Below, piece after piece: positions 15,410-48,179 of a DNA stretch of 51,490 nt (positions are counted from its first letter, which is position 1; each line of letters opens with the position of its first letter). Both the position numbers and the translations under genes were made by a program. The notes beneath the pieces are model-generated. The model was not told the origin of the DNA and made no database searches. It saw only the letters and a program-made list of their open reading frames with translations. Where the stretch lies: assembly GCA_001938485.1 (NCBI GenBank), contig MQRK01255235.1, forward strand, positions 1 to 51,490, read 5' to 3'. The DNA comes from Girardia tigrina (taxonomy: Eukaryota).

Positions 15410-17045
15410 TTAATAGATACATTGAAAAGATATTTTTTTATTTTTAAATAGATATTTAATTTTTTTTATGATTTTCTTTTATTATTAATTTCATTTCTAA
15501 TTTCATTTTTAATTTTTAAAATATTTAAAAAACACATTAAAAACATATTTTATTTTTAAATACGTATTTGTTTTTTAATAGTTGTTTTATTATATCATTT
15601 TTAATTTTAAAATATTTAATAAACATATTAACATTAAAATATTTTACCTTTTAAATTAAAAAAATAAAAAATTATTCTGGCGAGTTGCTAATTTAAATTA
15701 ACCCCTCATAAGAGTACTGACACTGACATCATCAGATTCATTTAAAATAAATTCATCAGAGATCCTGCTTATATCAATATTTAAGGTGTTGCAAAAGTTT
15801 CTTGATATTTATACAACGTATATTACAAACTCAAGAACTAAAAAATAAATAAACATTTTGACGCAGATATCGTAATTTGTAAAAATAAATCATTGTATTT
15901 TTCACTTCACTGAAAACTTAGTTTAAGACCTATTATGTTTTGGTTTTTTATTTACTTTCCTCATTTCGGATAATAGAAAACAAATAGTTTATTTTGCGTC
16001 TACCTAGAGTAAGAATGTGCAACCTGTTTAATATTGATGTACACAGTAAATTACCAAAAATATTAATTTGATGAATTTATTAAATGAACCAATTTTTGAT
16101 TTGTATTAATTTCCGCGAAGAAAATTTGTAACCCTACAAAATTGACTGTTCTTAACTAAAAATAAAGGGCTAGATCTTTTTTACAAAGCATACTGTAAAT
16201 AAGTCATCATGAATCATTTTGTCATACAAAAATAATATTATAAATTCGGGTAATCTTCTTTTATTTTACTTAATTATTGCAGGTTATCCCCTCCTGTATT
16301 TGAGGAGCATATTATAATCAATTCTTCTATTCTTCTCTTTTCACATTATTTTGTAAGTCACATGATTTACTGAAAACAAATAAATACCTCACAATATACA
16401 AAAAGTCAATCAAAACAATTTTCTCGAATATAAGCGACTTACGATTTTTAACTGCAATTTCAATAGATTTCTTTCAGAAAAAATGTGTTTATAAGGGGTA
16501 TATAACGATGAAAACAAATTTTTGTGGATTAAATTTTTAGGGTTATATGATCAAATATCAAAAAAGTATTTGGCTACAGAATTTACTACAGAATTGAAAA
16601 TTTAATTTTGCTAACTATTAAATCAAAAGAAATTTTTTACATCCATTCTTTATACAGACAGAACTCTACTTTGACAGTAAAATTTTAATTAAAAAAATAT
16701 TTGCAAAAAAATCACAATAAAAAATTATGTTAGTCAAGCAGAGTACCGCCCGTATAAAGCATGGATATAAAAAAAATATTTTTTTGAATTACTACTTAGA
16801 CTTTAAATCGGTTTACTGGACTATTTTTCAATTTATTTTTTGCGATATATAGAGTACTTATAATTTATAAGTAGATCTTTTTCAATTAATATTGTTCAAA
16901 ATTAATATTGTTTAAATTTTGAAACCTTAAAATATGTTTTGGTCAAATTTTCCCACTATCATTTAATGTCATCGAAATTAAGTAAGAGTGCAAAGTTTGG
17001 AGAAAATTGATTGAGTAAAAGCCTTCAAAAATAAATTTCAAAACT

Positions 17046-17076
<31 letters not shown>

Positions 17077-17126
17077 NNNNNNNNNNNNNNNNNNNNNNNN
17101 NNNNNNNNNNNNNNNNNNNNNNNNNN

Positions 17127-17182
<56 letters not shown>

Positions 17183-17260
17183 CTTTTCAATTAATTCCAA
17201 TGGCAATCGGGTTAATAAAACAAAAAATAGGCCTTTTTCAAAACATTTATTTTTATTTTG

Positions 17261-17295
17261 CAATACTAGTTTCGCCATATTTGCATCTTCAGTTG
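17261..17295 (-). ncRNA. Minimal type I hammerhead ribozyme (inverted copy)
   Basis: Minus strand caa CUGAAGA u gcaaauauggc GAAAC ua GUA uug. Confidence 0.65.
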
Positions 17296-17779
17296 ACTAA
17301 TTGAAATTTCAGATTTAAGTCCCTTTTATATAGCGGTAGACTGTTACGCAATACTCGAAACAGTTCCATTCTTAATCATATATTGAATTGTAGGGATCGA
17401 GAAAATATAGGGAGTGATAAGGAATTTAGTGTTTTATGTAAAAATTTTGACAATTATAAGGATAGGATAATCACTGAAGCATTGTTAATTAAGCATTAAA
17501 ACCATGCTTAAATGTTCAAAGTGATTCCTCAAATTATATTAAAATATTTTAATTCTTAGTTTTTTTTTGTCTTCTGTTTCTTTTAAGTTTTCTTCTTTTT
17601 TGTCTTTTTCTTTTTTTCTTTTGGAATAAATAATTAAAATTTTGAATATTGATTTTTAGACGTTTTTTCTTGTTATTTTTTTTTATTAAAAAAATTAAAA
17701 TAAAAAAAGCCTTAAATTGAGTATTGCGTAACAGTCTACCGCTATATAAAAGGGACTTAAATCTGAAATTTCAATTAGT

Positions 17780-17814
17780 CAACTGAAGATGCCAATATAG
17801 CGAAACTAGTATTG
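17780..17814 (+). ncRNA. Minimal type I hammerhead ribozyme
   Basis: caa CUGAAGA u gccaauauagc GAAAC ua GUA^ uug: stem I caa/uug, palindromic stem III ACUAGU. Confidence 0.7.
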
Positions 17815-17874
17815 CAAAATAAATAAATATATATCAATAAATAACAAACGCCATTTTAAAAGTTTTTTATTTCT

Positions 17875-17909
17875 CAAAATATGTTTCGCCATTACGGCAT
17901 CATCAGTTG
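17875..17909 (-). ncRNA. Minimal type I hammerhead ribozyme (inverted copy)
   Basis: Minus strand caa CUGAUGA u gccguaauggc GAAAC au AUU uug. Confidence 0.6.
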
Positions 17910-18019
17910 TGAAGTAAATTTCAAATTACAAGTCATTTATATGGCACATTGACAATAAAGATTAATTGCGTAATAGTCAATGTGCCATATAAATGACTTG
18001 TAATTTGAAATTTACTTCA

Positions 18020-18054
18020 CAACTGATGATGCCGTAAAGGCGAAACATGTTTTG
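18020..18054 (+). ncRNA. Minimal type I hammerhead ribozyme
   Basis: caa CUGAUGA u gccguaaaggc GAAAC au GUU^ uug; TATAAA upstream, AATAAA just downstream. Confidence 0.7.
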
Positions 18055-18121
18055 AGAAATAAAAAACTTTTAAAATGGCGTTTGTTATTTATTTTTTTTA
18101 CAAATAAATTGCCATTAAATC

Positions 18122-18161
<40 letters not shown>

Positions 18162-18165
<4 letters not shown>

Positions 18166-19346
18166 GTTGTTCGATATGAAACGGGTCAAAGTTCACACCT
18201 TACATTTCAATCGCGTATAACTTAACTTTGAACTATCGTATGAAAATAAATAAGGTATTTCTTGACAGATATATTATTNNNNNNNNNNNNNNNNNNNNNN
18301 NNNNNNNNNNNNNNNNNNNNNNNNNNNNNNNNNNNNNNNNNNNNNNNNNNNNNNNNNNNNNNNNNNNNNNNNNNNNNNNNNNNNNNNNNNNNNNNNNNNN
18401 NNNNNNNNNNNNNNNNNNNNNNNNNNNNNNNNNNNNNNNNNNNNNNNNNNNNNNNNNNNNNNNNNNNNNNNNNNNNNNNNNNNNNNNNNNNNNNNNNNNN
18501 NNNNNNNNNNNNNNNNNNNNNNNNNNNNNNNNNNNNNNNNNNNNNNNNNNNNNNNNNNNNNNNNNNNNNNNNNNNNNNNNNNNNNNNNNNNNNNNNNNNN
18601 NNNNNNNNNNNNNNNNNNNNNNNNNNNNNNNNNNNNNNNNNNNNNNNNNNNNNNNNNNNNNNNNNNNNNNNNNNNNNNNNNNNNNNNNNNNNNNNNNNNN
18701 NNNNNNNNNNNNNNNNNNNNNNNNNNNNNNNNNNNNNNNNNNNNNNNNNNNNNNNNNNNNNNNNNNNNNNNNNNNNNNNNNNNNNNNNNNNNNNNNNNNN
18801 NNNNNNNNNNNNNNNNNNNNNNNNNNNNNNNNNNNNNNNNNNNNNNNNNNNNNNNNNNNNNNNNNNNNNNNNNNNNNNNNNNNNNNNNNNNNNNNNNNNN
18901 NNNNNNNNNNNNNNNNNNNNNNNNNNNNNNNNNNNNNNNNNNNNNNNNNNNNNNNNNNNNNNNNNNNNNNNNNNNNNNNNNNNNNNNNNNNNNNNNNNNN
19001 NNNNNNNNNNNNNNNNNNNNNNNNNNNNNNNNNNNNNNNNNNNNNNNNNNNNNNNNNNNNNNNNNNNNNNNNNNNNNNNNNNNNNNNNNNNNNNNNNNNN
19101 NNNNNNNNNNNNNNNNNNNNNNNNNNNNNNNNNNNNNNNNNNNNNNNNNNNNNNNNNNNNNNNNNNNNNNNNNNNNNNNNNNNNNNNNNNNNNNNNNNNN
19201 NNNNNNNNNNNNNNNNNNNNNNNNNNNNNNNNNCAGTGTGTTGACAACATGGGGGATATTTTGATTAAAAATAAAATGTTATTATTTAAAAAAAATTGAT
19301 TTACATTTTACTTTAATTTTGACCCGTTTCATATCGAACAACCTAA
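18162..19346 (+). mobile_element. Mariner element, interior in an assembly gap
   Basis: Perfect TIRs ttaggttgttcgatatgaaacgggtcaaa, TA TSD; transposase tail QCVDN...GYFD* after the gap. Confidence 0.9.
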
Positions 19347-19712: not shown

Positions 19713-19841
19713 TATTACGAACATTTTATTAAGTCCCTTGAAGATTTTTTTTTCGGGAATTAACTTTTATAATTTAATTTTAACTTTAATTCAATAATAT
19801 TTTATTATCAATAATTAATCATTTACGTTATCATTTTTGTG

Positions 19842-21218
19842 ATGTTTTTACCAAAATTTTTTCATTGGAAATCTCGAGAAGAATCGTCATTTAAGTGTGT
19901 AGGGACGACTGATGATGAGAATTTAGATTTCGATTGCGACAGCCTCGTTGCATATCCCAGCCTTTCTAATTTAAATCAAGACATCGAAAATTCTGACGCC
20001 AATCATCATCAATCATTATTATTAATGAAAAAAATACACGGTTATCCAGAATGCTGTTCGGCACATCTTATCGAAGCCACCCACATGAATTACGAAAGAC
20101 CATCGAAGAAAGAAATGATGGAACGAAGGTTGGAACTCTATTTCAAAAAGTATCCGTTTCGTGGACACGATGATTATAAACTGAAAACAGCTGTGATTTC
20201 GAAACTCGAAAAATCCGAAGAAACGAAAAGCCTTGACAATTACGTTCGGAAAAATTCGATTACCCCTGTTAAATGTCGTACTCCATTAATACTATTGAAT
20301 GAGTCTAATAATAATGATAAGAAATTGAATCAGTTGACTGTGATAACAAAACAGAAAGTAGAAAAACCGATTTACTCAACGTTTATTGAAAAATTTAGTA
20401 AAACTGATGATGATTTGAAGAATTTCGACTTAAGAAGTTGCGATACGGGATTAAGTGGAAATATGTCAAGAAATCCAAGTCGAGTTACCACTCGTTCCAG
20501 TCAAGATATTTACTATAGCGCTGTATCATCGAATCTCAGTTTCGGGGAAATTTCTAACGATAGTTCGTTAAAGAGTCGAAAAACAATGAAATCTAAGTCT
20601 TATACGAGTCACTCTTTCACAACGTGTTTCAACGGATCTTCCAAATCTTATTGTGAAGAAATTAGGAAGTTAAATTTAAGTTCCGGTGACAATTCTCTGA
20701 ATGAAGAGATCATTGATTCATCGAAAGATTCCTTAAATTGGACAATGACTACTCGGGGAAATAATATTTCGTTACGTAAACCGTCGAAAGATCAAATCGA
20801 AAACGATTTGGATTTCGTTACGTCTTTAAGTGGGGATAATTTGAATAAACTTTCAACTGATTGTGATTTAACGAGAATTTCCCATAAGTCAGATTTGTTA
20901 ATCAGTCCCCCGACCGATATGACTAGAATAACATCAATGGAAAATCTTTTCCATTCGAAAAATTTTACGAATAAGAAAATGTCTAATGAGACATTTGAAA
21001 AGATTTTATCGGTTTTGAAGTGTATGATGAGTGATTTATCAAGTACGGAGTCGAGTGAATGGAGTTTGTCTCGGAGTAACAAATCCACGTTTAATTCCAT
21101 TAGTAAATTGCCTAGAAAATTGAAAAAAACTTCTTCGACATGTGTCACGGATTTAGGATCTTTAGATTTGTGTTCGTATTTGTCAAGTTTCGATAAATCA
21201 GAATCTTGTTTGAATTAA
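19842..21218 (+). CDS. Uncharacterised Ser-rich protein (~458 aa), apparently single exon
   Basis: 1.38-kb uninterrupted ORF in very AT-rich DNA, higher GC than flanks, AATAAA ~25 nt after the stop. No domain recognised. Confidence 0.75.
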   Translation: MFLPKFFHWKSREESSFKCVGTTDDENLDFDCDSLVAYPSLSNLNQDIENSDANHHQSLLLMKKIHGYPECCSAHLIEATHMNYERPSKKEMMERRLELYFKKYPFRGHDDYKLKTAVISKLEKSEETKSLDNYVRKNSITPVKCRTPLILLNESNNNDKKLNQLTVITKQKVEKPIYSTFIEKFSKTDDDLKNFDLRSCDTGLSGNMSRNPSRVTTRSSQDIYYSAVSSNLSFGEISNDSSLKSRKTMKSKSYTSHSFTTCFNGSSKSYCEEIRKLNLSSGDNSLNEEIIDSSKDSLNWTMTTRGNNISLRKPSKDQIENDLDFVTSLSGDNLNKLSTDCDLTRISHKSDLLISPPTDMTRITSMENLFHSKNFTNKKMSNETFEKILSVLKCMMSDLSSTESSEWSLSRSNKSTFNSISKLPRKLKKTSSTCVTDLGSLDLCSYLSSFDKSESCLN

Positions 21219-22103: not shown

Positions 22104-23236
22104 TTGATGTATTGGAACAGATATTCAAAAAATGAGACATTATCGATGTGGTACCCGCTTTTTGAGAGAATTTTTGGAAATATGAGAGAAAGTGCTGCTG
22201 AAGATTTTCATCGAACTATTATTCAGTTAAGGGTTGGACTTGACCAAGGATTTGAACGTTTTACAACTCCAAAATCAAAAAAGTTCATAAAAAAGATTAT
22301 GTGTAAGAGATAACAACACCGATACAAAAAGGAAAACTCTTTCATAAAAATATTGACTGTAACAAAACCAAAACAGAATATTTCGAAATAAAGCAAGCAA
22401 CACAAACCCAAAATAACCATATCCATGACAAAAATTATAAGAAGAATTTCTTCAAACTTACAAGAGAAAAAGAATCACAAACAGAAAGGTTCTGTAGTGA
22501 CAAAAATACTTCTGAGAAACAAATTCAAACTTTGGAATCCGTAAATAAAAAATCAACAGATAAATACAGCCAAACAACAAACACTATCATCACCGAAGCA
22601 AAATCCATATCCAGAGAAGTAGAAACTAATACCCCAACAATCAAAGATGACTCTTCACAAACCGACAACATGAACATTAACAAAATATCTCAGAATCAAT
22701 CAACACAGATTACTCCATATGATGACTTACCATCATTGAAAGACAGAGACAAAAACACACAACCCGAACTAAGTAAAGAAAATAATTGTTTTAACAAGAC
22801 AAAAATTTACAGCCCAAATGTAGAAACTGATTTTGACATCAATTTCAGTAATGTTACAAGTCCTGATTATGATCCAGAACAATACCAATCCAACAGAAAA
22901 ATAAATCAAGTAAACAGCATCACACACGAAAAACAATTCAAGAACACCGACCAACGATCAACAAAAATCAACAACAGTTTCACAGAAATTGGCTCAGAGA
23001 TTACGGCACTCGTCAGAGATAACACTACCGATTTTCTCCATGGACCTTACAAAATCGAGAGCTTTAAAAGAAATTCTTTCATCTTGCTAATAAACGACGT
23101 AGAAACTACCGTCAACCAAAAACGAATTAGATTCTGTTCTAAAAAACACCTCGATCATATAGATTTCAGAGACTGGGAGGACGAGTTAGTTAAGAAAATT
23201 AAATCCTTATTTGAACATAATTTATATATCTGGTAA
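22104..23236 (+). pseudogene. Disrupted ORF(s) antisense to, and abutting, the gypsy integrase; contains a GPY-like motif
   Basis: ORFs 22104-22313 and 22532-23236 (T/N/S/Q-rich, then HGPYKIESFKRNSFILLINDVETTVNQKRIRFC). Confidence 0.45.
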
Positions 23237-23239
23237 ATA

Positions 23240-26200
23240 CATATTCACAACATTTCGGAAACAGTTTTAACGCTCCACTTACAAGAAGGGTGTTCTTTAA
23301 CCACAATACATATTCACTTTCTGTTCTTCTGACCTCATTTTTTCCATTAAAATTTAGTAATGACGGTTTTCTTCCATATTCTATTTCAAAGGGGATATAC
23401 GCCGTGGATTTCTGCGTTGCACATCGCAAACCGTGTTCTACAATCGTAAGAACTTCTGTCCAATCTTGTGTGTTATAGAATACATAGACGCATTTATCAT
23501 TTCTTTAGTTGTGCGAAAAATTCGTTCAATTAATCCATTTGATTGCTGATAATACGGTGAGCTTTGAGTTTGATTAATATTCATCGAAAAACAAAATGTT
23601 TTAAATTCAGCAGAAACAAAATAAGAACCATTATCTGAATGTATACTCTCTGGTTTCCCGCACTTTCATACCCATTGATCTAATAATAATTTTAATATAG
23701 ATTTGGAATCTATTGTTCTAAGAGGGATTAAAGCCATATATTTGGAAAAATAGTAGATTATTACTAAAATATAGTGAAATCGTTCTTTAGAAGTTTCGAA
23801 CGGTCCGCAGATATCCATTCCAATCACTTCAAATGGTCTGTTTGCTTCTATATGGGTAATTGGTGCTCTATTACGACCGTTTTTACATTTTAATCTAGCA
23901 CACGCTTCACACTTAGAAACAAAATCTTTTATATTGTGATCCATACTTGGCCAATAGAATTCATTTTTTAATGCAACTGTGGTTCTCTCTATACCTATAT
24001 GCCCCATACTTTTGTGAATTTTTGGAATAATAATATATCTATCAGACTTTGGAATAACTAGTCTGTAAATATCATTGTCTAGTAAATAAAGTAAGTCTCC
24101 TTGTAGTCTTAGATCTGATAAACGTGCAAATAGTTGTTTAAAACATTTATCTTCTTTAATTTCCATAGGTACTTCGGTTATGGTTATACTTTTTGTAATC
24201 ATTTTAATTATCCATACAATTACAACATCTTTAAATTGATTGTCATCATTTATAAATAATTTGTATATAGCTTTTTCATTGCTTGAATCACTTGAACTGT
24301 CTTCGAAAACTTTAACGTTTAGTCTTTTAAGTGGTTCTTTATAATTTAGAGTGCATTGTTCACAATAACCAAAGTTTGATAGAGCATCGGCATTCACATG
24401 ATCTTTTCCTTTCCGGTATTCTATTGTCATATCATATACTTCTAACTCTTACTTTCACACACAAAATTGCGACGTATTTGGACTGTCTCAGTTTAAGAAC
24501 CATTTTAAAGCTTCGTGGTCTGTTCTGACCGTAAAGTTATGACCTAATAATGTTTAAAATAATGTTTAAATTTCAAACAAAAACATACACTACCAGCAGT
24601 TCTTTTCCAGTAATACAATATTTATTTTGACTTTTAGTTAGGGTTTAGAAGCGTATGCCAGAACACGTACAGAACCATTTTGTATTTGCGATAATACTGC
24701 ACTAATTGAATTTTGTGACGCATCGGTATCCAGTATGTAATAAACGTTGGTTTTTGGAAGAGCTAAAACGGGTGGGGAGGATAAAGCATCTTTCCGTTTA
24801 TTAAGCGAATTAATTTTCTCCGCGTTCCACTGAAACTTTGAATCTGTCTTAGTAATCGAAGTGAGAAGTGTTGCAGACTTTGATTTATTTATTTTTTTTT
24901 ATGAGTTTTTTCTTATGCGTGTCCTTGTGTTTACATCAACAAGTGTAGTTTATTTCTTTTAATTTTATTTGTTATGTGATATTTCTTTTTGTCGGTATTG
25001 TGGTTGTTTATTTTTTTTTATTATTTTTTTTATTATTTGCTTTTTTTATTAATGTAAAAATGAATAAAATATTGCCTATGGCAATATTAAATATCAAAAA
25101 AAAACGATCAATAATAAATCGATCGCTATAAATAACAATTTAAAAAGAAATATCAGCAATCAAAGAAAGAATTTTAATCCTCTCTACTGATCCTGATTTC
25201 AATTTCCTAGAAATAGTTCGTTTACTCAGTCCGCCACCACTCCGACGACGACGACGATTTCATCCAGATCAATTTAATTGTCTTCATAGAAAGAAATACA
25301 GTCAATTATTTTATACGGTAATTTATTATCGTTGACACATCACCTCATTCNTTTTGACATTACTCTCAATCTTTTGCTCTCTTTGTGATTCACTAACATT
25401 AAACACCCTGTCATCCACCCTTTGTTGAGTTGTTATAAAGAATTATAATTTCATTATTTATTCATTTGGTGTCTTATTTCAAATCTTAATTCAAGCACTA
25501 TTTAAAATACGTTTGTTACGTAACCGAGTTGAGCAAAATACTTAGTTTTATCAGCTCGCTTCCGTAATAAGAGGTTCCGATAATACGGCATAATTTTTAA
25601 TGAATGTTCTATAATAGTTAAATAATCGTAGAAACGATGTAACTCCTTTATGCAATTCGGGATATGCCAATTTTTCAGGGTCCGTTTTCACCCCTTCCGC
25701 ATCTATTATGTGACCAAGATACCATACACTGGTTTTCAAAATGCAACATTTCTCAGAAGACAATTTAAGACCTGCTTCTTTTATCCTCTGAAGCAGTAAA
25801 CTTAATCGGTTATTGTGATCTTCTATTGTCCTTCCAAAAACGCCAGGACGTCATCCAAATTAATCAGACATGTTGACCAGTTTTCTTTTTGCATAATACG
25901 ATTCGTCATTTTTTGGAATGTAGCTAGAGCTGAACACAAACCGAATGGCATTCGGGTAAATTCGTATTGTCCGTATTTTGTTGTAAATGGCGTTTTCTTT
26001 ATATCTTCCTCTTTTATTGGGATTTGATAATATCCGCTTGATAAGTCTAGTGTATAAAAATATTTCGCTTCTCCTATCGCATCGAAAATTTCTTTGCTTG
26101 GTGGGATGGGATATATTGGACGTTCGTTCTTTGCATTTAATCCTCGGTAGTCAATACATAATCTTAAATCTCCATTTTTCTTTTTAACTATTACTAATGG

Positions 26201-27830
26201 GAAATTCCACAGAGAATTACTTTTCCTGATTATACCCGCCTCTTCTATGTCCTTTACTTTAGTATTTACAGCTTCTTCTAAACCTATTGGAATCCTTCGA
26301 GGTTTGAATGCAATTGGTTTTGCTTATCCTGTTTCCATGGAATATTCGATAATGTTTGTGACACCAACGTCTAAAGTATATTTGCTAAAAATTTCCATAT
26401 TCTGGCGAATTATCTCCATGGTAGCATTTTTAACCTTTATCGGTAAGTTATCCATATTTTGTCTAATAATTGAACATATATCAGTTACTTTGGATACTTC
26501 TCTTTCCTTTGATACTTGTAATTAACTAAAAATGCTTTTCTTGGTACTTTGTATCACTTCGTCTTTCCATTCTTCCACGTGCCCGAAAATAGATCCAGTA
26601 TGTAACATTTTGACACCTCCATCCGGTATATATATTCGAACCCATATAAATCCTTTATGTGCAGTAACTTAGGAATTACAAATTAATAAATCTTTCTCTG
26701 CTATTTTCAGTTTATCTCCAATAAATAATAAATCATCGGATATTAATAATTTCTGCATATTTTCATCTAACACAGCACCTTTCACAAAGAATTCTCGAGA
26801 ACCGGATAATTCTACATTATTATATAAAATCACGCGCTTAATTAAAAATGTCTGAGCTCTTTTTGCCCCTTCATCCGCATCCGAACCCTTAAATACGGTA
26901 GGAATTAGTTTAAAGTCGTCGCAACTTTGGTGGCTGAAACGAACGAAACAATAACATTTTGAATTTCGACAGAATCAATCTCTGGCTTGACACTTATACC
27001 ATAATTTTTCATGCTTCTCAATCCAATAAAAATATCTGGTGATATATCTGCCGTGATATCAAAAACATGTTTCGTTGCTATATGACCAAAATTTACCGAC
27101 AGTTAAATTTTTCCTTTGCAAATTACTATTTGACCGTTGGCACATCTGACTTTTGTTTCAGATGGGTATATCCTTATACCCGATTCTTCCGTTAAACGTT
27201 TTACAAGGTTGTCGTTTATCACGTTTAAATCAACTCAAGTGTCGAACAGAACATTTACTTTTCTGTTATCAATAGTACATTGAACAATGGGTTTGTTCAT
27301 TGTTGATGATTTGTTCATCAGTACCTCTTTGTATAGTTGCCTTTTAGGCTTTTTGGTCGTGTCATTGATGTAATCCACATACTGGTTGATTAAATCCCGT
27401 TTTTTTAGTTTAGATTTTGAAATTGCATTGAACTGCCTACTCTCTGATCTTGAAGAATGAGATGTCGAGTTTATGCTATAAGTATCCGATAGTTATTCTT
27501 CCTGCATCACTTTCACCGTCTTGAGTTTCGGACAGTGAGTTTTTTGTGATTTCCTCCGAATTCATACATATTATTGTTCTGTAAAATCTCTTAATATGCC
27601 CAGTTTTATAGTATTAGTAGCACTTAACGTTTTCGTATTTGTTCAAACAACTCTTTCACGTTGTTTATGTGGTCGGTTATTGATCTCTCCTTGCAATGAT
27701 GTCTCTCGAAGATGAATAGCTTTTCTTCTTTCTTCCTAAACATCAGTTCTTCCAAATACTTCTGAGCTGTAACGTTCGCTTCTGACGACATGTTGTATAT
27801 ATTTAATAAAGATAGAATCAATAAGAGTTG
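23240..27830 (-). mobile_element. Degenerate Ty3/gypsy retrotransposon (gag, protease, RT, RNase H, integrase)
   Basis: Integrase H...GH...CEAC zinc finger and GMDICGPF (23666-24430); RNase H LDTDAS (~24715-24740); RT RMPFGL, LDD and YLGH (25550-26400); protease VLFDT (~27245). Order PR-RT-RH-IN; many lesions. Confidence 0.93.
24869..25569. mobile_element. Solo LTR inserted in the RT-RNase H linker of the gypsy element
   Basis: TGTTGC...GTAATA termini, TSD agaag/agagg; removal restores the reading SEPL-TSITKTDSKFQW. Confidence 0.7.
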
Positions 27831-30723: not shown

Positions 30724-31608
30724 TGTGAGGAATATTTTAAATTGTTTGAATGTGTAAATGTATTTATGAGGGGTTAATTTAAATTTTTATCTCGCCAGAA
30801 TAATTTATTATTTTTTTAAAGGGTAAAATATTTTAATGTTAATATGCTTATTCAATATTTTAAAATTAAAAATGATATAATAAAACAACTATTAAAAAAT
30901 CAAATACGTATTTAAAAATAAAATATGTTTTTAATGTGTTTTTTAAATATTTTGAAAAAAAATTAAAAATGATATAATAAAAGAAAATCATAAAAAATCA
31001 AATATCTATTTAAAAATAAAAAATATCTTTTTAACCCTACAATGCGCCGTGATTCATATTTGAATCAACCATATTTTACCTCAATATCTTTTAATCGCGT
31101 GATATTCTTTGAGTGTTTACATACTGTGAACCAAAAACATTGTCTATGGAATGATAACTGCCCATAAAGTCATAGATGCAATATATTTTGTCAACAAAAA
31201 TGACAGTTCAGTTTGATTTTTCAGTTTTTTTTCTTATGATAATTAAAAAAATTGCGCATTGTAGGGTTAATGTATCTATTAAATATCTTAAAATTAAAAA
31301 TGATAAGAAAATCATTAAATATTAAATATTTATTTATAATTAAAAATATTTTTATTGTCAAAACAATTTATATATTTTAATAGAAGTATTGAGCAATTTA
31401 AATAAATTTTTAGTTTTAATGTGAAATGTATTTAATAAATTTGCAAGATTTTAAAAATTGGATAGAAACGAATTTAATAGATTAATTTGTGGCGGGATAA
31501 TTAAATTAACAGAAAAATTTGTTTTAATTAAGTGAATTGTTGTTATATAAATAAAGTTTGGTGTTAAAAAAATGAATTCGGATATTGATGTTGCAACCAC
31601 CTCTCATA
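30724..31608 (+). mobile_element. LTR, family B (same family as the 5' LTR of the 6.9-kb gypsy)
   Basis: TGTGAGG...CTCATA; segments 30781-30805 and 31561-31606 match 6902-6977. Confidence 0.75.
31035..31266. mobile_element. piggyBac-like MITE (TTAA TSD)
   Basis: TTAA|ccctacaatgcgc ... gcgcattgtaggg|TTAA, perfect 13-bp TIR. Confidence 0.85.
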
Positions 31609-35757: not shown

Positions 35758-38700
35758 ATGAATAAATTAAGTGAAAACACTATCCAATTAATATCGAGCA
35801 GTTATAAAATCTCATCGATCGAAACACTGGTCAAAGAATTGGTCGAAAATTCTCTCGATGCTAAATCGACTCACATTTTGATTTATCTGGCATGTTTTGT
35901 TTGCTCCACAGAAACAAAAGAAAATCGATTAATAAAAACGATTTAGAAACGATTTGGGTTAGAAAAAATCGACGTAATTGATGACGGATGCGGTATCAGT
36001 GACGCATCTCTCGTCTGTCAGAGTCATTGCACCTCAAAGATATTACACTATTCCGATATTGAGACGGTAAACACGTTTGGATTCCGCGGGGAAGCGCTAT
36101 CGGCAATCTGCTCGATCTCTGACTTGACGATCACCTCGAACTGTGACGCCAGCGCTTCTCCCATCGGGAAGAAATGGGCGTTCGATAAAATGGGTCGAAT
36201 AATTGCGCACTCCATCGTGTCGTGCAAGCAAGGTGATTTGCCGTTGTTTCTCTGTGAACAAAATCGAGTTTGGTGTGTAATTTCCGATGTATATTAAATA
36301 AATTACAACAGATATAAAGTTGCTGAAGATGATCAAAGATTATCGATGAAATATGTTCCAAGTTGACTTTTAATAAAATGCTTTAACAAATATCTATTCT
36401 AAATATTTCAAATTATTATAACTAGACTATATATATTAGGTTGGTCGAAAAATAATGGCGGTTTTTGAGCTTTATACTTTGTTTATCTACTTTGATATGT
36501 ATATAAGTTTAAATGCATTAGTGTTAGATATTATTTGAAATCTTATGTCTAGCTGTAAATTCCTATCGCCATTATTAACATATTGCTGTTATTTTTTAGA
36601 ATATTTACGGTGCTAAATTAATAATGGAAAAAATTAAAATTCGAGCAATTTTCTTGTACGAATTTAAACTGGGTCGTAAAGCAGCANNNNNNNNNNNNNN
36701 NNNNNNNNNNNNNNNNNNNNNNNNNNNNNNNNNNNNNNNNNNNNNNNNNNNNNNNNNNNNNNNNNNNNNNNNNNNNNNNNNNNNNNNNNNNNNNNNNNNN
36801 NNNNNNNNNNNNNNNNNNNNNNNNNNNNNNNNNNNNNNNNNNNNNNNNNNNNNNNNNNNNNNNNNNNNNNNNNNNNNNNNNNNNNNNNNNNNNNNNNNNN
36901 NNNNNNNNNNNNNNNNNNNNNNNNNNNNNNNNNNNNNNNNNNNNNNNNNNNNNNNNNNNNNNNNNNNNNNNNNNNNNNNNNNNNNNNNNNNNNNNNNNNN
37001 NNNNNNNNNNNNNNNNNNNNNNNNNNNNNNNNNNNNNNNNNNNNNNNNNNNNNNNNNNNNNNNNNNNNNNNNNNNNNNNNNNNNNNNNNNNNNNNNNNNN
37101 NNNNNNNNNNNNNNNNNNNNNNNNNNNNNNNNNNNNNNNNNNNNNNNNNNNNNNNNNNNNNNNNNNNNNNNNNNNNNNNNNNNNNNNNNNNNNNNNNNNN
37201 NNNNNNNNNNNNNNNNNNNNNNNNNNNNNNNNNNNNNNNNNNNNNNNNNNNNNNNNNNNNNNNNNNNNNNNNNNNNNNNNNNNNNNNNNNNNNNNNNNNN
37301 NNNNNNNNNNNNNNNNNNNNNNNNNNNNNNNNNNNNNNNNNNNNNNNNNNNNNNNNNNNNNNNNNNNNNNNNNNNNNNNNNNNNNNNNNNNNNNNNNNNN
37401 NNNNNNNNNNNNNNNNNNNNNNNNNNNNNNNNNNNNNNNNNNNNNNNNNNNNNNNNNNNNNNNNNNNNNNNNNNNNNNNNNNNNNNNNNNNNNNNNNNNN
37501 NNNNNNNNNNNNNNNNNNNNNNNCAAAAATGTATTGATGCCAACGGTTCATACTTTGATTAATAAACTTTTGTTTCTGTGAATTTGCACGTCTTTGAAGT
37601 TTTTGTCCCAAAACCGCCATTATTTTTCGACCAACCTAATATGTATATGTTATATCGAATTTGTGTAATGGGGCTGTCAATAAATGTCGTCACGCGGTAT
37701 TATCAAATTTCCAACCGCCCCTCCTATCGTCACTCTTCGTCACAAAATGCTTGACTTCTCTTAAATATGACGTCACAAAGCTCTGACACCCCCATGACTT
37801 TTTCTTTTTGTTACCGTAAAGTGCTAAAATAGCTAAAATTTGGGGGATTGTGCACTATGCATCATTCAATGTTTTCGTCGATTCACTTAACATATTTTAC
37901 GGGGAAAGGGTCAAGTCAAGCCACTTTTCATATTTTACATTTCACGAGTCGACACAATATTTTTTTTGCGAGTACTAAGTCAAAGGATCTACGAAAAAAC
38001 TCCGCGAATCAAAACGTCGAATTTAATAATTAAATTAATATTATTAAAATTATTTAATTTGTTAAAATTTTATTTAATTTATATTATTAAAATGGATATT
38101 ATTATTTGAAATTTTTTCAAAAAAGGGCTTAAATTAACTTATAAATAAGCTGAAAGTGTCTGCAAGTCGCAAGAAATTTCAATGCATATTTGTAGTGAAA
38201 AACTAAATTATAGAAAATTTAAATGGAGCCCGATCGGTTTTGTAGTTAGAATGTTAATATTTTGTCTTTAGGAAAATATTTTTATCAAGTCAAAATATTT
38301 TTAAATAATAAAAAATCATATAAAAATATAATTTTATTCTCTGTTTTGGAATTATTTTTATAATAATATTGGAAAACATTGTCATTATTTTTAATTTTTT
38401 AATGTTAAATAAATTAATACTAAAATTAAAAAAATAATAGTAAAAAATTGAATAAACATTAAAAATATTTTTGAATATTATTATAAAAATCATTCCAAAA
38501 CTTAGAATAAAATAATATTTTTATGTGATTTTTTATTGTTTAAAAATTGAAAAAAAATTGTTTCGAAAATTGAAATATTAAATTTAAAAATTATTTGAAA
38601 TCTTTTTACTTTATAATTAAATTATTTATAATTAGTAGGAATAAAATAAAATCCCAATCAACCATCTGCGTAGGACACACAATCCGAATCAACATACAAC

Positions 38701-41700
38701 ATGCACAATATCAACAAACAATTCAAAATATTCCTCACAGTTATGTTCTATTATAAAATGTTATGTAACTAAAAAAATATAAATTTAATTATTAAAATTA
38801 TTATATTTTAGAAAATTTCTTAATGATAATTTCGGTTTTTTGGGTATTTCATACTTTGTGTTTCAGTTCTTTTAGATAAATCAATTATTAAATCTATAAT
38901 TACATTATTCAATTGTTTACATAATTCCAAAATTATTTTAATGAAGATTAATAAATAAAGAACAAACTTTAATAATTTAACACATTAATTTATCTTTAAA
39001 TATATTAATTTTATAAATATATAAATGTTGTGTTGCTACATTGATGATTTAACTTAATTTATAACAGGAACCACAGTATCTGTATCAAATATTTTTCATA
39101 ATCTCCCAGTCCGCTGTCAAATATATAAATCATTATATATTCTTCAAAAAACCCTGAAGCTTATAACACATTATTTGCAGCAATTATATCTATCAAGAAA
39201 GAATATTCACATAAAATTATTTAATGATAACAATATCATTTTAAATCTTCCAATTACTTCTTTTAGAAAAGACGCAATTTCTTTTGTAATCGGATCAAAT
39301 AAGTTCAAATATTTTAGTGAAATCAGTGAATTCAAATCGGATCAAGAAAATAATAACGACGATAATAAAATAGAAATGAATTTATTTATTCCACATTGTA
39401 TCGATGATAAAATCGGTTTAACATGTCATGATTATAAAGACAGTTGTTACTTATTCATCAACGATCGACCCGTCGAAGTGCCCATATTATTCAAAACTGT
39501 AAGAAATATCTACAATCGCTTTACAAACACGACATCTAACCGCTATCCCTATGTGTTCCTCTATCTCTATATTCCATCATCTTGGATTGATGTAAATATC
39601 GACCCGGATAAAAGAAAAGCCAATCTCAGTCACATGAATTTAATTATCGATTTTATTGATCAACATTTACAATCGCTATATGATTCTTTGAGCAACGATC
39701 AAGCTCCAGCGAGTGATAATCAATCAAACATCCCTATTATTCCTACAGTCAATGAAAANCTGTCATCCAGTATCGTTGTCCCTCTTGCAAGTGACAATCC
39801 ATCAAGCAGCACAAATGTTTTTCCATCAAGTGATAATTTGTTAAGGGACAATTACTTGAATTCATCGTGTGAAATGCCTCCGGTGAAATATATACGGAGG
39901 ATACACGCTTCTAAACTTGACGAAATGTCAGATGATCTATCAAATAATAAAGACGACATTTTTTCGGTAGATGAAAGTTCAATTGAATGTCGAGAAACGG
40001 TTTTCAATGATGAAAGACAGGAAGAATATGCTCGTGGAAGATTATTGGAAATTGAAGATCACCCTATTAAAAATGTTAACTTAAAACGATCAGTAAGTGT
40101 AACTCTTTTTAAGGCATTTTATTTTTTTTCTTACTTTTCAAGTCGTAATTTACATTTCTATAGTTAATTTGATTAATATATTAAGAAGAATGTAAAACTG
40201 CTTTCTAATTTAGGAAGCAAAAGACCATATGACGTTATTGTTAAAGTATATTTAACACTAATATATTTATGTTGAAAGTAAAAATGTTATTTATTTTAAA
40301 TTCTTAGTAGTTTTTTTTATTGTTTATCAGTATTTATTTTTTTCTTTCTTTATCTTTACCAATTCATCGATCAACTCTTTAAATTAGTAGCACATTCAAA
40401 ATAGAGATGGACGTTCATCCTTAAAAGTCTCTCAACCCTACCCGAATTTTCATGAGTCAAACCAAAACCCTTCCCGACCCGGCTTTATTATTATGCGACC
40501 CAACTCACCCGACTGTATTTTATAACAATTCGAATTAACCCGAATGTAAATTAATTTTTATTGGACAATAGATTATCAGTCTTCTGCAAATGATGGGATG
40601 TCCATATAAGACAACACGAAAAGCATTTTATCTATGGTAGTTGGTGAAAAATGAACACGTCTTTTCATTATTATAAAACCAGCTTCACTGAAGTCTCTAT
40701 CCGATGTTGCAAAAGAAGCAGGTACGCTAAAAATAAGTCGAGAGATTCGAGACAATTGAGGATATTAACTCTCTGGATTTCCACTAATCCATGAAATCAA
40801 CTTTAAGACCAAAACTTGGTTCTTCTGAATAAATGTCCAGTTCCACTTTGAGATCTGTTTCTTTCACGTGGTTCCCATACAATTCATCATCAAAGGTTCG
40901 CGAAACCTGAATTATAATGATGATATATGTACTATATTTACTTTGCGTCTTTCATTTGAAATGTATCTTTGTGCACAAATGAAAACTAATTGTTGATCTA
41001 GGATTTTATGGTGAAAAGTTAAACTTATCGAATCAGTGACGACACTTTCACTTACGTCTACAATTGGCTGAATTAGTTTCAAAGTCTCTTTTATGTACTG
41101 AAGAGCGGATGACCGTTGCTCAGAGATCAGAAAATTGATCGAATTTTTAGCACGAGGATCCAGGAAAACATCAGCGAAATGAATAGAAGCAAGCTGCACT
41201 AATCATGATAAATGATCATTTATCACAAATAAAAAGACTTGCTACTTGTTGTTCTGTATTGAGCGAAAAGGACTTCTTTTAATTTTTAAACAGGAAAATT
41301 TTTTTGACACTTTGTGATAATTCGACTATTTGTCAACCCGAACCCAACCCGATTTTCTAAACTGTAACCCTAACCCGACCCGACCCGAAGTAACAAATCA
41401 CTAACCCTATACCAGGTCGAGTTCGGGTACGGGTTACATTCGACCATCTCTAATTCAAAATAATGAATCAAATTTTTCGTTATCATAAATTATATCAGAG
41501 TTCCTTTGACAATTATTTCTGTATTGATCTTTAAAACGTTTTCCAGAAAAGTGTACTATGAAGTTAAGGTGATAATTCTAAAAAAATGAAATTTTAACTT
41601 TCCTGGCGGATGTGTGATTATCTATTATTTTTAAGTTATACTTCTATAGTTATTATCACTTTGAACTAAAGCAAAAGATGTATTTTAAGTAAATAGGACA

Positions 41701-44417
41701 GGAAAAATATAAAAAGACACCTTTTGTATTTAAAATGCTATTAAATTCTGTGTCTAATTGCAGTGTCTTAATGGCAATAAAAATGTGACAGTCAAACTCA
41801 TGAACCATTTAACCCGTTTTACCATTCCACTCTGGTGTGTGTTACATGTACTTGCTGCACCTCTCTATCTGTTACTTAACATACTCGATTAGGTAGAAAT
41901 AGCTTGTGTTGATGTAATTCCTCACCACATTCAATAATATCGAACTCCGATGATGTAAAATCTCATGACATCACTAGAGTTCAAATTCCAATGATTTCAG
42001 ATGTAAGGACGTCACCGGAATATGCAATTGCAAGGTCAGTTTCAATTGCACGAACTAACCCAAGGGCATATTGTATAATATTATATAATATTGATTTAGT
42101 ATAAAAGAATGAATATTTTCATTTTAATTCGGTAATCAAATCCCCATCAATATTTCATTTAATAAATCTTATTCTTGAATTTGTGTTCTTTACACAGCTC
42201 AATTATGGATCATATTTTGACGAAAAAATGTAGGAAAGGACATTACATAGATGTCCGGGTTTTAATCAGTAACTTTGATTATAATTATGAAAGGATAATT
42301 ACTGAAGCACTGTTAATTTAGTTCTTAAAACATAGTTTAAACATTTAAAGTGATCCATTCCATCATATTAAAGTATTTTAACGTAAGACATGAATGATGC
42401 AATGGTCTTCTAACTATATAAGCAGTAGCAGTTGATTAAAATTGTAGATGTGATGATGCCATAAAAGCGTAACATATACAGTAAAGTTTCTCTTAACTGC
42501 AAAAAATGGGACCTGACGAAAATTTGGCGGTTAACAGAAACTAAGGAATAAAATAAAGACGCTGGGAAGCCACCGAAAATGACCGAAAACCGTGCAGGTC
42601 GTTATTAACCGCCCAAAAATTCTGATTTTTCTAAATTTCACATAGAAAGTTTCTATCAGCTGCTAATTTCTGTTAACCACCATTTTTTTAAAAAATTGGT
42701 GGTTAAGAGGAATTTTATTTTAGAGGTGTGAGGAATATTTTAAATTTGGTATGTTGAAATTGGTTTGTTGAATTTTGTATGTTGAGTTTAGTATTTGGAA
42801 ATGTGTTTCTCCCACCCAGATGGAAAATTGATATTTTAGATGTTCATGATAAATAATTATTCGAGTATAATTTATATAATTTAAATTTTAATTTATATTT
42901 TAAAGTACTACATAAGATATTTAAAAACATTAAAAATATTAAATCTTTTCAAATCTTCATATTAAAATTTAAATAAAATAAATAGTTTTAACTAAGTTTT
43001 GAATTAATTAAATATTCTTTNNNNNNNNNNNNNNNNNNNNNNNNNNNNNNNNNNNNNNNNNNNNNNNNNNNNNNNNNNNNNNNNAAAACTACAAAATTGA
43101 ATTTTAAAAATAAAATCAGAAAATAATGAAAAATTTGTTCGAATAATTGTTTATTAACAAACATTAATAAAAAATTATCAATTTAGAACGATGTCAAATG
43201 ACGTGAGTTTCGCTGAGAGTTGTCCAAAAGACAATTCTGATTGTAATGAAAATAAAAGTTTGAAAAGCCATGGTGGTGTTCTTAATAAGAGGAACTGTAT
43301 TTTAAAAATCAACAAAAACATTAAAACCTGGATGTTTTGGAGGTTTTTCGATCAGGGATCAGTGTTTTCATCAATTTCACACATACAATCATCATTCAAA
43401 AGGCTCCGCGGGACGAGTCTCAACCCTGTGCTGGGCCCTATTTTCAATTTTTTTAAAAAATGGCGGTTAACAGAAATTGGCGGCTGATAGAAACTTTCTA
43501 TGTGAAATTTAGAAAAATCAGAATTTTTGGGCGGTTAATAGAGGGTAGCGGTTAAGAGGAAATTTATTGTATTTACATCTATTTTAAAATCTCTTTATAA
43601 ATTTAAATGGTTTGAATAATTTATTTATAATTTTTGCAAATCAAATTTATAATACATATTTTTTAAATATTCAAGTAAGAAATTCTTATAATTTGAAATT
43701 AAAAATATTAATCAATTGAATAATGCAAACCTACAAAAGTTTTGTTAATAATTGAACTGGGGGCAGATCAATTTTTTATAATAATAAAATTGTCGAAAGT
43801 GTTCTTAATAATAACAATTACGCATATTTTTTTCGCCACAAGTCTGAAACTCTTAACAAATGTTTGATTATATTATATTATATTATTCTAAGTTATGATT
43901 ATTAAGAAATGTGCATTTTTTTCGAATGTGTACACCTTTTAAACATTTAGTATATCCATCCATATTTTTTATTTTTTATTAAAGGGATAATGTTTTATTT
44001 TCAGATTCAAAATAAAACAACTGATAATTGTGAAGTGTTGCATTCTAAAAAGCAGAAAAATACCGAACCATCTACAATGCAATCAAGTCCCGTTAAGGCA
44101 TTAATTAAAAATTCTGTAAATGAATCATCGAAAAATTTACAAATTTCGCTAAATCTATCTTTGGATTCTTTAGAAAAACAAAATGTTACTCAATCTGATA
44201 CTTCATCTACTAAAAAGTTGATTATTGTTAACTGTTGGGATACTTTTGTAATTTCGGTTGAAATGCAAAACTCAGAAACCTTAAAAAGCAATGAGGCAAA
44301 TGATTTGGTAATTTTTAGTCAAAAGGATCTCATCTTTGCCAGTACATACTTAGAAAATATTGCTAATATCCAGGTACCGGGAACAACATTGCCATGTCCT
44401 ATCGTAATAAATGAAAA
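35758..44417 (+). CDS. PMS1: PMS1-like MutL-family mismatch repair protein, 5' exons 35758-35889, 35947-36232, 39068-40092, 44005-44417 (3' end not found; a micro-exon near 40214 is possible)
   Basis: GHKL ATPase motifs VKELVENSLDA, VIDDGCGI, HCTSK, TFGFRGEALSAIC, G|TTVSVSNIFHNLPVR; transducer FINDRPV...YP...IDVNIDPDKR. Later exon YLENIANIQVPGTTLPCPIVI resembles my recollection of the vertebrate PMS1 C-terminal region rather than PMS2. Confidence 0.85.
36436..37639 (+). mobile_element. Mariner, cecropia/Hsmar1-like subfamily, in PMS1 intron 2; interior gapped
   Basis: Perfect TIRs ttaggttggtcgaaaaataatggcggtttt, TA TSD; ORF MEKIKIRAIFLYEFKLGRKAA...QKCIDANGSYFD* (36624-37562). Confidence 0.93.
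38600..38739 (-). mobile_element. LTR 5' portion (family D); distal boundary uncertain
   Basis: Matches 28320-28466; begins TGTGAGGAATATTTT on the minus strand. Confidence 0.6.
40402..41452 (-). mobile_element. Internally deleted hAT transposon
   Basis: TIR tagagatgg / ccatctcta, perfect 8-bp TSD attcaaaa, cccga subterminal repeats, dimerisation-domain remnant YPQLSRISRLIFSVPASFATSDRDFSEAG. Confidence 0.9.
42200..42478 (+). mobile_element. Penelope-like 3' remnant with a decayed hammerhead
   Basis: RIITEALLI...HHIKVF*, then tatataa and gUGAUGA ugccauaaaagc GUAAC au; interrupted by the MITE at 42479. Confidence 0.6.
42479..43569. mobile_element. Tc1/pogo-type MITE containing a solo LTR
   Basis: TA|cagtaaagtttctcttaac ... 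gttaagaggaaatttattg|TA; internal inverted repeat 42605-42680 / 43465-43540. Confidence 0.75.
42727..43287 (+). mobile_element. Solo LTR, family A, with 5-bp TSD agagg
   Basis: agagg|TGTGAGG ... TCTTAATA|agagg. Confidence 0.85.
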
Positions 44418-44528
44418 GTAATTTTAATTGTTTAGTATCATAATGGTGAAAAATTATCATATTTTATCAAAAAATGTAACAACAGTAAAGTACATTTGAC
44501 AAACACATTTCCATATATGTATATGTTA

Positions 44529-45561: not shown

Positions 45562-46733
45562 TTTCTGAACTCATCTCTTCATTCTTCACTTAACCTTTTT
45601 TTATATCTTCTCTTTCCTTTCTTGATTGGGTAACAAATACCCACTTTCCTTATTAATGACATTAAACAATAAAAATAAAAAAAGTAATAATAATGATGCA
45701 TATTCACACATGCAGTCGCATACCACAAAAAACATACACTGGTAACAAAATAAAAATGTACTTTTACACCCCATTTTCCTTATTCAACAATACATTCACT
45801 TTTCTCTTATCTGCTAATCCAATTCTGTTAATAGTTAAAAAAATTTTGAAAGGGGGTCATATATATTGTGACATACTTATTCTAAAGGGATTAAAAAAGT
45901 TGTGATAGGAGTATGGATGGAGGCAAAAAATGCGAAAAAAACGTGACATCCTTTATGAACAGCCCTAAGATCTCTTTTACATATATTTTGTAACAGGTAA
46001 TCAATCTCACACAAACATTTAAGATAAATGTTTATTTTATTGATAGGTCTGATTTAACAATCGCAAATGTTTCAATTTAATTTTTATTCATATGAGAATA
46101 TAAAATGGATTATTTTTTTACTACGATTAAAGCTTATTTATATATAGGGACTAAAAATCGTAACATCTTTTCCAATATTTCGAATGTATATTTATTGATA
46201 ATTATATATTATTTCCTTTTAACGTCTGTTTCAATATTATATTTTCTTATTTCAAAACAATGAATGTAATCATATTTATTTATTACTTACTTTTCAATAT
46301 CTATAAAGTCGTATGTCCAGAGATTTGACATAATATATAAATTGCTTGGAATTTCGTTAAATTTCAAAGGTTTCTTTGATTAATTTAGTTAATAATCTAT
46401 CATTCCGCTTCCTTATTTTTTTTCTTTTTGCTCAATGGCTTTTTTCATTGTCTACTTAAAGTAGTTTTCTGCTGTTGATAAAATTCTGGATTTGAACATA
46501 TAATTTTTCGTTTTCTTATTTATTTATTTTCTATATCTTGTACATCAAGTCTGATTCTCATCTTGAAATTATTGAATAAATACTAAATTATCAATTTCTA
46601 GCAATAAAAAATAATATATGATTTATTTTGAACATTTTCATTTACTCTTGAAAATTGGATGAAAAATTATTTTTTGTAATTTTAAATTATATTAAACACA
46701 AATAACACCATTTTAATTTTAAATTTTTATTCG

Positions 46734-46770
46734 AAAACATGTTTCGCCACTGTTGTGGCATCTTCAGTTG
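46734..46770 (-). ncRNA. Minimal type I hammerhead ribozyme (inverted copy)
   Basis: Minus strand caa CUGAAGA u gccacaacaguggc GAAAC au GUU uuc. Confidence 0.65.
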
Positions 46771-47136
46771 TGTTTTTAATTAGAAAGTTATTGTTTATAT
46801 AGAAAGATGATCATTACGTCACAGTATGTTACGTCAAAATACTCTAATATGATTGGACGAATCACTTTGCACATTTAGACCAGGTTTACAAAACTTACGT
46901 CAAAATAATGTCATGGAACTCAAAGTAGGGTATTTGATAGTGATTTTCGCGTTTTTATTAGTAAATTGGTTCACAATTATGAAATGACAATTACTGAAGC
47001 ACTCTTGATAAAGTTTTGTAAACCTAGTCTAAATGTGCAAAGTGATTCGTCCAATCATATTAGAGTATTTTGACTTAACACACTGTGACGTAATGGTCAT
47101 CTTTCTATATAAACAATAATTTTCTAATTAAATACA

Positions 47137-47173
47137 GAACTGAAGATGCCACAAAAGTGGCGAAACATGTTTT
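47137..47173 (+). ncRNA. Minimal type I hammerhead ribozyme
   Basis: gaa CUGAAGA u gccac-aaaa-guggc GAAAC au GUU^ uuc, followed by AATAAA; 5-bp stem II. Confidence 0.75.
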
Positions 47174-48179
47174 CGAATAAAAATTTAAAATTAAAATTGT
47201 GTTATTTGTGTTTAATTACTAAATTACCATTTGATTTGAAGAAATTAAATTTATTTAAATTATATGTTTATTATTTTAGAGATCTTGCACTTTAACTATC
47301 TTCATGTATTCTTATTTGAGAAAATTATGTTCTTTCTCTCGTTCCGTACTTTCTACATTATAATAATTACAAGTGACATCAAAACATTAATCAATCTTTG
47401 AGTCGAACCCTTGCACATTTAATGTAATTCTCTTGAAATTCAGCTTTTACATTAAATCTAACACAATCTGAAGAATAATGATCTATGTAGATTAAGTAAA
47501 ATTTTTTTCTGTCCATCATGTATTTTTATATTGTTCATTCAAATTTGACAAAATTTCAAATAAAGATTCTCGTTTTCAAGAGGAAGTTCGGAAGAAACTT
47601 ATTTTCAAAAAATTTATCACTAGACATATCGCCGAGTTCACCATCCGACCAATCAGATTGCAGTATTTTTAAACTGTAGAAAATTTTTTTTTATTATTTT
47701 TTATACAACAGAATAATAAAAAGGATTTTTGATGATGTTAATGCGAATTTAAGTTTGATTTACGTTAAAATAATATATTTATTCTTGAAAACTTTGATAG
47801 ACAAATTGAACAATTGATTTTATTGTAAACAAAAACGAACAAAACAATTGTAAATTATAGTACCACTATAATTTGTTTGAGAGAGTATCTGGGTTAAGAA
47901 ATTACTTCTTTACTATAATTTACTGTGTATAATCCGCATTTGACATTTTTATGATCTTTGGCCTATAATATAAATAAATAGAGTTTTATAAATATAAATG
48001 TACAGTTTGAAGTAGGTTATGGCATTTGAAAAAACAACATATATGACCAACACACAACTAGTTCCCATCCAGATTTCCACAACGCACTCAGTCACAATTA
48101 CCTGTGTCACTGTTAAATGAGCATGACAGTAAACCACTATCACATAAAACTGTTATTTTTTTGTATATATTATTTTTTT

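Follow-up and report, generated by a model that had tools for sequence, protein, structure and literature searches.

A hammerhead-bearing palindrome of Girardia tigrina is very probably a heavily 5'-truncated insertion of a Penelope-like retrotransposon

A 5'-truncated copy with an inverted partner, a tail on one side and a microsatellite target are described as general features of Penelope-like retrotransposons (PLEs), with DKG named as a PLE motif, in the available part of the survey of Craig et al. (2021, PMC8557442). A manual-curation guide agrees on inverted pseudo-LTRs (pLTRs) and 3' extensions (PMC8969392, available sections). According to the accessible text of Arkhipova et al. (2013, PMC3846280), head-to-head junctions with palindromes are the most frequent form, and the Penelope copy Pen2a_Av of Adineta vaga carries a shorter inverted pLTR, an optional tail of 31 bp and a 9-bp duplication, its pLTR holding a TATA box and also the first codons. 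Cleavage and extension of the two target strands in vitro are shown for the PAc Poseidon PLE protein, with reverse transcription from two internal sites bounding the tail and an ORF starting in hammerhead stem II (Frangieh et al. 2024, PMC11167929, as excerpted). In 2014, Cervera and de la Pena (PMC4209133) described dual minimal hammerheads (min-HHRs) of Schistosoma mansoni that occupy opposite strands with about 100-700 bp between them; in the part of that report available, a single min-HHR gave no cleavage and dimers gave low cleavage.

Here, we analysed a locus within a 51,490-nt stretch of G. tigrina DNA (the whole of which is called the window). We have good confidence that positions 17836-18123 are one heavily 5'-truncated insertion of an endonuclease-type PLE. 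Most likely, its insertion pattern is the one already known for PLEs, and the locus is a further truncated copy and no new element. With Pen2a_Av, as far as described in the accessible text, it has in common the head-to-head shorter inverted pLTR, the tail (about 31 bp there, 30 here), a 9-bp target-site duplication (a candidate here), a TATA box in the pLTR, a palindromic junction and an ORF whose first codons fall within pLTR plus tail. It differs in that any ORF body is missing, about 170 nt and a 118-nt mirror being left, and in that pLTR and tail contain 29 codons against 22 in Pen2a. The inverted partner, a tail of 30-40 bp at one end and a (TA)n or AT-rich target are likewise common to PLEs in general and to PAc Poseidon, and the start of the ORF inside hammerhead stem II is common to PAc Poseidon, within the excerpts available for both.

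An earlier note, made from the letters of the window, had described this palindrome as having 118-bp arms with two mismatches and a 22-nt spacer, and this geometry holds, 116 of the 118 positions being reverse-complementary. The left arm (17836-17953, minus strand) is an inverted, shorter pLTR copy without tail, and the right arm (17976-18093, plus strand) is a pLTR copy; the 22-nt centre occupies 17954-17975. Mismatches are located at 17880/18049 and 17891/18038. A repeat search stretched the arms to 121 nt, leaving 16 nt between them. The plus strand folds as a single hairpin of -181.2 kcal/mol (z -34.1), which none of 200 shuffles equalled, and one of the two differences between the arms disrupts pairing.

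Reading the sequence outward confirmed the order TATAAA, hammerhead core and AATAAA in each arm. In the right arm, a TATA-like box (TATAAA, 17988-17993, plus strand), a putative promoter, lies 35 nt upstream of the hammerhead core and AATAAA is found at 18058-18063 (plus strand); both are mirrored in the left arm, where the TATA-like box is at 17936-17941 on the minus strand. The geometry of the read-through hairpin that had been proposed was also supported: whichever strand is transcribed, the antisense arm precedes the hammerhead arm and could pair with it. Since the TATA-like boxes point outward, such a hairpin RNA would be expected, judging from the sequence, only by read-through from outside.

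Each arm carries one minimal type I hammerhead reading outward. The right-arm motif (18016-18058, plus strand; core 18023-18045) has the cleavage triplet GUU, a predicted cut after 18051 and a palindromic stem III hexamer. In the left-arm motif (17871-17913, minus strand; core 17906-17884), the C15.2-G16.2 pair is broken and the predicted cut falls after 17878. Stem I of this type of motif is short, a U is added after A9, stem II has 3-4 bp, and stem III consists of two pairs with a palindromic hexamer. The extra nucleotide between 9 and 10.1, the G10.1-C11.1 pair and the palindromic 15.2-16.2 with loop 3 are common to the min-HHRs of PMC4209133; in contrast, stem II is shorter than the 7-8 bp of S. 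mansoni even in sister copy C (5 bp; see below), and the GUU triplet, here known from sequence, is a difference from the motifs given in the available part of that report.

Four matches to a strict minimal-hammerhead pattern were found in the window, against none in 200 approximate dinucleotide shuffles. The earlier note had proposed a check against hammerhead models, which gave no match: no Rfam hammerhead model was among 18 hits at E<=5 or, in a second search, among 11 hits at E<=10, and both searches gave only sub-threshold hairpin hits. The ribozyme call for the palindrome therefore rests on the motif and on covariation. In an alignment of 11 copies (six from the window, five from metagenome loci), 90.9% of the stem cells were paired and 12 cells were changed on both sides, values that are partly circular as the structure was set by the analyst and five of the 11 rows were found with a pattern fixing stem II. 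Neither value was reached by any of 500 shuffles, and slid controls were 21-48% paired. In sister structure B, two loop-3 letters are swapped and the hexamer is still palindromic, as a dimer-forming stem III would require. When pairs of arms were co-folded, the canonical dimer fold was not the lowest-energy state, and self-pairing of the hexamer was calculated at -4.6 kcal/mol for the right arm and +1.0 kcal/mol for the left arm. With the two hammerheads on opposite strands, a single transcript has only one of them, which precludes a tandem dimer in cis. As far as their sequence tells, they could cut solely as dimers in trans or with the protein of the element.

The unit is asymmetric: it has a tail on one side, and its centre is part of the right-hand copy. 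At the right end only, a 30-nt extension (18094-18123, plus strand), the tail, follows the arm; the whole structure is thus 17836-18123, 30 nt beyond the right limit noted earlier. Homologous extensions occur at one end of each of the sister structures B and C. The ends of the palindrome lie 42 and 72 nt past the predicted cut, compared with about 85-92 nt for the far site of PAc in the excerpts of that study.

Outside the unit, 9 nt of TA-rich sequence at 17826-17834 are identical to 18124-18132 (both plus strand), where the right copy runs into a (TA)n array; these are the candidate target-site duplications. One base, 17835, between the left candidate and the left arm is unassigned. Among 3000 random pairs of places, direct repeats of at least 9 nt occurred by chance in 0.7% and the 12-nt case found in sister C in 0.03%; the 9-nt repeat is a weaker case than the 12 nt of C, since the sequence is TA-rich and, beside a TA array, this null is too lenient.

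The turning point (17949-17980, plus strand) comprises the innermost bases of the arms around the 22-nt centre, and this centre is 5' extra sequence of the right-hand copy. The 11 centre nucleotides next to the arm matched sister B at 10 of 11 positions on the plus strand and at 3 of 11 on the minus strand; plus and minus matches were 7 and 4 with C and 6 and 2 with D, respectively. For the whole 22-nt centre compared with C, strand orientation was tied (10 vs 10 and 10 vs 9). A TGA at 17950-17952 sits where the sister copies have the stop codon of the ORF, and the distance from stop to core is 71 nt in the palindrome, 67 in C and 70 in D. Sister C also has a 4-nt inverted micro-repeat that matches that of the palindrome in nearly the same register.

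The palindrome is one of three fold-backs in the window, with three different centres and arm/centre lengths of 118/22, 123/362 and 206/114. Structure B (17234-17835), an older head-to-head pair of a related subfamily with the palindrome at its right edge, is a hammerhead-bearing fold-back with arms of 123 bp (17234-17356 and 17719-17841) placed 362 nt apart. It lies between TA arrays and has its extension at the left end only, beside a (TA)n array. Each B arm has one stem II lesion, and the long copy of B contains about 160 nt of T-rich/A-rich sequence between the ORF stop and the TATA box, which C and D do not have. Arm identity is 98% in the palindrome and 96% in B; the lower divergence, together with the position between B and the TA array, indicates that the palindrome was probably inserted later than B.

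Structure C (46681-47265) has arms of 206 bp (46691-46896 and 47011-47216), a 114-nt centre with the last codons of the ORF, a right tail of 37 nt and 12-nt direct repeats (46681-46692 and 47254-47265). It is the cleanest such structure in the window. The first 6 nt of its 12-nt repeat also continue the frame of the element in protein P0001 (see below), a possible microhomology at priming. Structure D (about 42150-42490) is a decayed single copy with no inverted partner and a mutated core; located between ORF pieces of a mismatch-repair gene, it is probably intronic. Identity of the right copy of the palindrome is 70% with C (154 nt compared) and 72% with B (105 nt compared), and the distance from the TATA-like box to the core is 32-38 nt in the three sister copies.

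The palindrome had been called free of any ORF. This does not stand, since the first codons of the ORF are present in each arm. The left arm contains the first 19 codons (17836-17892, minus strand), retains the ATG at 17892-17890 and shares 15 of 19 residues with the beginning of a database protein, P0002. In the right arm, the first 29 codons (18037-18123, plus strand) extend through the tail with 25 of 29 residues identical to P0002, and the start codon is altered to AAG at 18038. P0002 has the ATG of the left arm and the valine codon of the right arm, so that each arm carries one private change. The right-arm AATAAA reads as Asn-Lys, invariant in the three peptides compared below; a role as poly(A) signal is also possible.

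The right arm, the left copy of B and the right copy of C each have a frame that, starting in the hammerhead, stays open over the whole tail, and the three peptides align. An open frame of 30 codons is expected by chance at 17% for a given frame and at 44% for any of three, and is weak taken alone. We used a profile of these three post-hammerhead peptides to search 1.84 billion proteins; it matched two, P0001 and P0002. P0001 (164 aa) begins with the peptide of sister C (35 of 38 residues identical) and continues past the tail. It overlaps P0003 (646 aa) with 102 of 106 residues identical, and P0003 contains an RVT_1 domain (E 6.3e-12) with DKG and YVDD motifs. The match of P0002 to the palindrome ends at the same tail end. 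The link of the palindrome to a reverse transcriptase (RT) thus runs through sister C (P0001 and P0003), the subfamily of the palindrome itself yielding the N-terminal peptide alone (P0002); no full-length ORF of this subfamily was found at E<=10 among 124 candidates. Beyond the tail, P0002 continues into a TA array and then into the reverse strand of a B-type arm. It appears to come from a second locus, in which a TA array separates an end of the palindrome subfamily with its tail from an inverted B-type end, and the two subfamilies may have target sites in common.

An ORF end with a conserved E and N, a candidate for the end of a GIY-YIG domain, is common to the centres of B, C and D. Pfam returned no relevant family for the ORF-end peptides of the sister centres and no GIY-YIG domain in P0003, which ends before any such domain. 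With P0003, a PDB search yielded nothing beyond weak matches to retron and group II RTs, and in NCBIfam RT families were far below cut-off; with P0001, an ESM Atlas search gave only scores of 0.85 or less. The RT linked to the palindrome has DKG, in contrast to DKT in the Hydra clade and DKA in Naiad in the literature excerpts available; no endonuclease domain was recovered.

A link of the palindrome to Penelope-like pLTRs and to their inverted arrangement had been suggested earlier, and it is supported by the demonstrated homology to B, C and D and by the connection of C with an RT. By its anatomy, the palindrome itself displays a hammerhead pLTR, a head-to-head 5'-truncated partner and a 30-nt tail at one end, and a further PLE trait, the start of the RT ORF in pLTR and tail, is found through sister C. 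Each pLTR copy would start near the former stop codon of the ORF and, past TATA box and hammerhead, reach into its first codons. We propose that the protein of the element would have cut an AT-rich target bordering on the (TA)n array, with one nick per strand and about 9 bp between the nicks, and that each nick would have primed a short cDNA inside the RNA. The start site would be 72 nt past the hammerhead cut for the tailed arm and 42 nt past it for the tail-less arm. The two cDNAs may then have been joined via a few complementary bases of the pLTR around the stop codon. Alternatively, snap-back self-priming at the same micro-hairpin could give nearly the same product (Arkhipova 2013). The 4-nt micro-repeat of sister C is the feature that both the two-nick and the self-priming models need. 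Since insertion, each arm would have acquired its one private mutation.

The stub encodes no enzyme and, as a single locus, is retrotransposon debris of a described pattern that matters little. It is nevertheless a clean example of modest value for the open question of how the inverted ends of PLEs are built: priming from both target nicks would leave just such a tail on one side, a 9-bp duplication and a junction at a pre-existing micro-hairpin.

The earlier note had instead interpreted the palindrome as a non-autonomous fold-back element. Of this proposal, the PLE pLTR link and the hairpin geometry stand, while the symmetric ORF-less unit is contradicted by the tail, the right-copy centre, the ORF codons and the candidate duplication. 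Such a family, in which the whole hairpin is transcribed and re-inserted in trans by PLE enzymes and all copies share one junction, appears unlikely to us. For mobilising other sequence in trans, pLTRs can suffice (PMC3846280), and non-autonomous PLE derivatives have been described (PMC8557442; bioRxiv 10.64898/2026.07.22.740005), as stated in the accessible parts of these sources. The unit also retains the tail region where reverse transcription would start, and with arms differing at only 2 of 118 positions the family would be young. However, the three fold-backs of the window differ in centre and arm length, which fits the case that the note itself had named as refuting its proposal, a one-off truncated insertion, and no further copy of the 22-nt centre was present within the window. 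With its own TATA boxes pointing outward, the unit would be unable to transcribe itself whole, and a hairpin of -181 kcal/mol would be a poor template. P0002 represents another copy with the same tail end but is silent on the centre. We give an equally small chance to a variant where the turn is non-random at the stop-codon micro-hairpin, so that the subfamily would repeatedly yield a 288-bp pLTR-only hairpin, re-mobilised in trans and self-silencing via read-through. If true, this 288-bp unit would be the head-to-head hammerhead counterpart of head-to-tail retrozymes, with its promoters outward. Animal non-LTR retrozymes (bioRxiv 10.64898/2026.07.22.740005) are, according to the available text, likewise short, enzyme-less and pLTR-derived with a type I hammerhead. 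The palindrome was rejected as one of them, since those are head-to-tail with hammerheads on one strand, whereas it is head-to-head with one per strand.

The other explanations fare worse against the same observations. The assembly is gappy nearby, with N runs at 17077-17126 and 18279-19233, and inverted PLE structures are said in the accessible part of PMC8557442 to trouble short-read assembly; yet the mirror ends sharply, exactly at the end of the element, between unrelated and unmirrored flanks, each arm has its own single change relative to the P0002 state, and a tail and direct repeats recur in C, making a fold-back artefact of assembly or library very improbable. Even less credence is due to a MITE or fold-back DNA transposon with a chance hammerhead-like motif in its terminal inverted repeats. 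The locus is short, bounded by inverted repeats, set in TA-rich surroundings and has a direct repeat on both sides, but its inverted repeat falls short of the right end of the element by 30 nt, and homology links the arms to an RT ORF start and the sister centres to an ORF end. A host hairpin-RNA or microRNA locus under selection could be invoked for a long near-perfect hairpin that Rfam miRNA models score (best MIR2619, 69.8 bits), and PLE copies yield small RNAs in Adineta (PMC3846280, accessible text). None of these miRNA hits comes near its gathering score (69.8 against 113), all of them are due to the hairpin alone, and one of the two arm changes breaks pairing; we regard this explanation, too, as scarcely probable. 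For annotators, the resemblance is a warning that PLE stubs of this kind can look like MITEs or miRNA hairpins.

We found no paper on a non-autonomous inverted palindromic hammerhead PLE family in the literature covered, in which subscription papers were few; supplements may list such a family. Beyond the window, the strict hammerhead family pattern gave no locus in metagenome contigs and none in viral contigs. A relaxed pattern gave at least 118 loci, the pattern being re-found in 117 of 118 among the matches listed. Seven of these 117 listed loci had an inverted self-match, and a clearly mirrored core (98% over 55 nt) was seen in L016 alone. This locus (positions 1-330 of an unrelated metagenome contig) is a fold-back hammerhead pair like the palindrome, the one clear case among the 117 listed. 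The listed loci gave no tblastn match to P0001-P0003 at E<=1e-3 and no RT-like ORF by motif tags. A family of similar minimal hammerheads related to L016 includes L005, L012, L023, L026, L041, L046, L051, L054, L055, L062 and L072; in 8 of the 12 loci of this family, the sequence stops no more than 33 nt before the core, which looks like a break in assembly. L001, L002, L003 and many alike form a second abundant minimal-hammerhead family, mostly single copies with no RT ORF seen nearby. In a sequencing-run index queried with 921 nt (B and the palindrome), an unspecified part of the query is present in 20 of the 24 runs listed (13 studies), a result of no evidential weight; two runs contain half the words or more, and two are recorded as RNA.

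Several other features were observed in the window. Pieces of a MutL-family mismatch-repair gene, which we take to be PMS1-like, extend over 35947-44421, with Pfam DNA_mis_repair at 39058-40164. Two broken LTR-retrotransposon-like ORF sets, Gypsy-like by eye, are located at 6938-10333 (plus strand) and about 23200-27000 (minus strand). Inverted repeats at 38297-38547, at 42603-43540 and at 15513-15662 with 30808-30958 had no hammerhead core seen in their arms and are possible MITEs. A serine-rich open frame of 467 codons (19815-21215, plus strand), with no Pfam match, lies 1.7 kb downstream of the right-arm TATA-like box.
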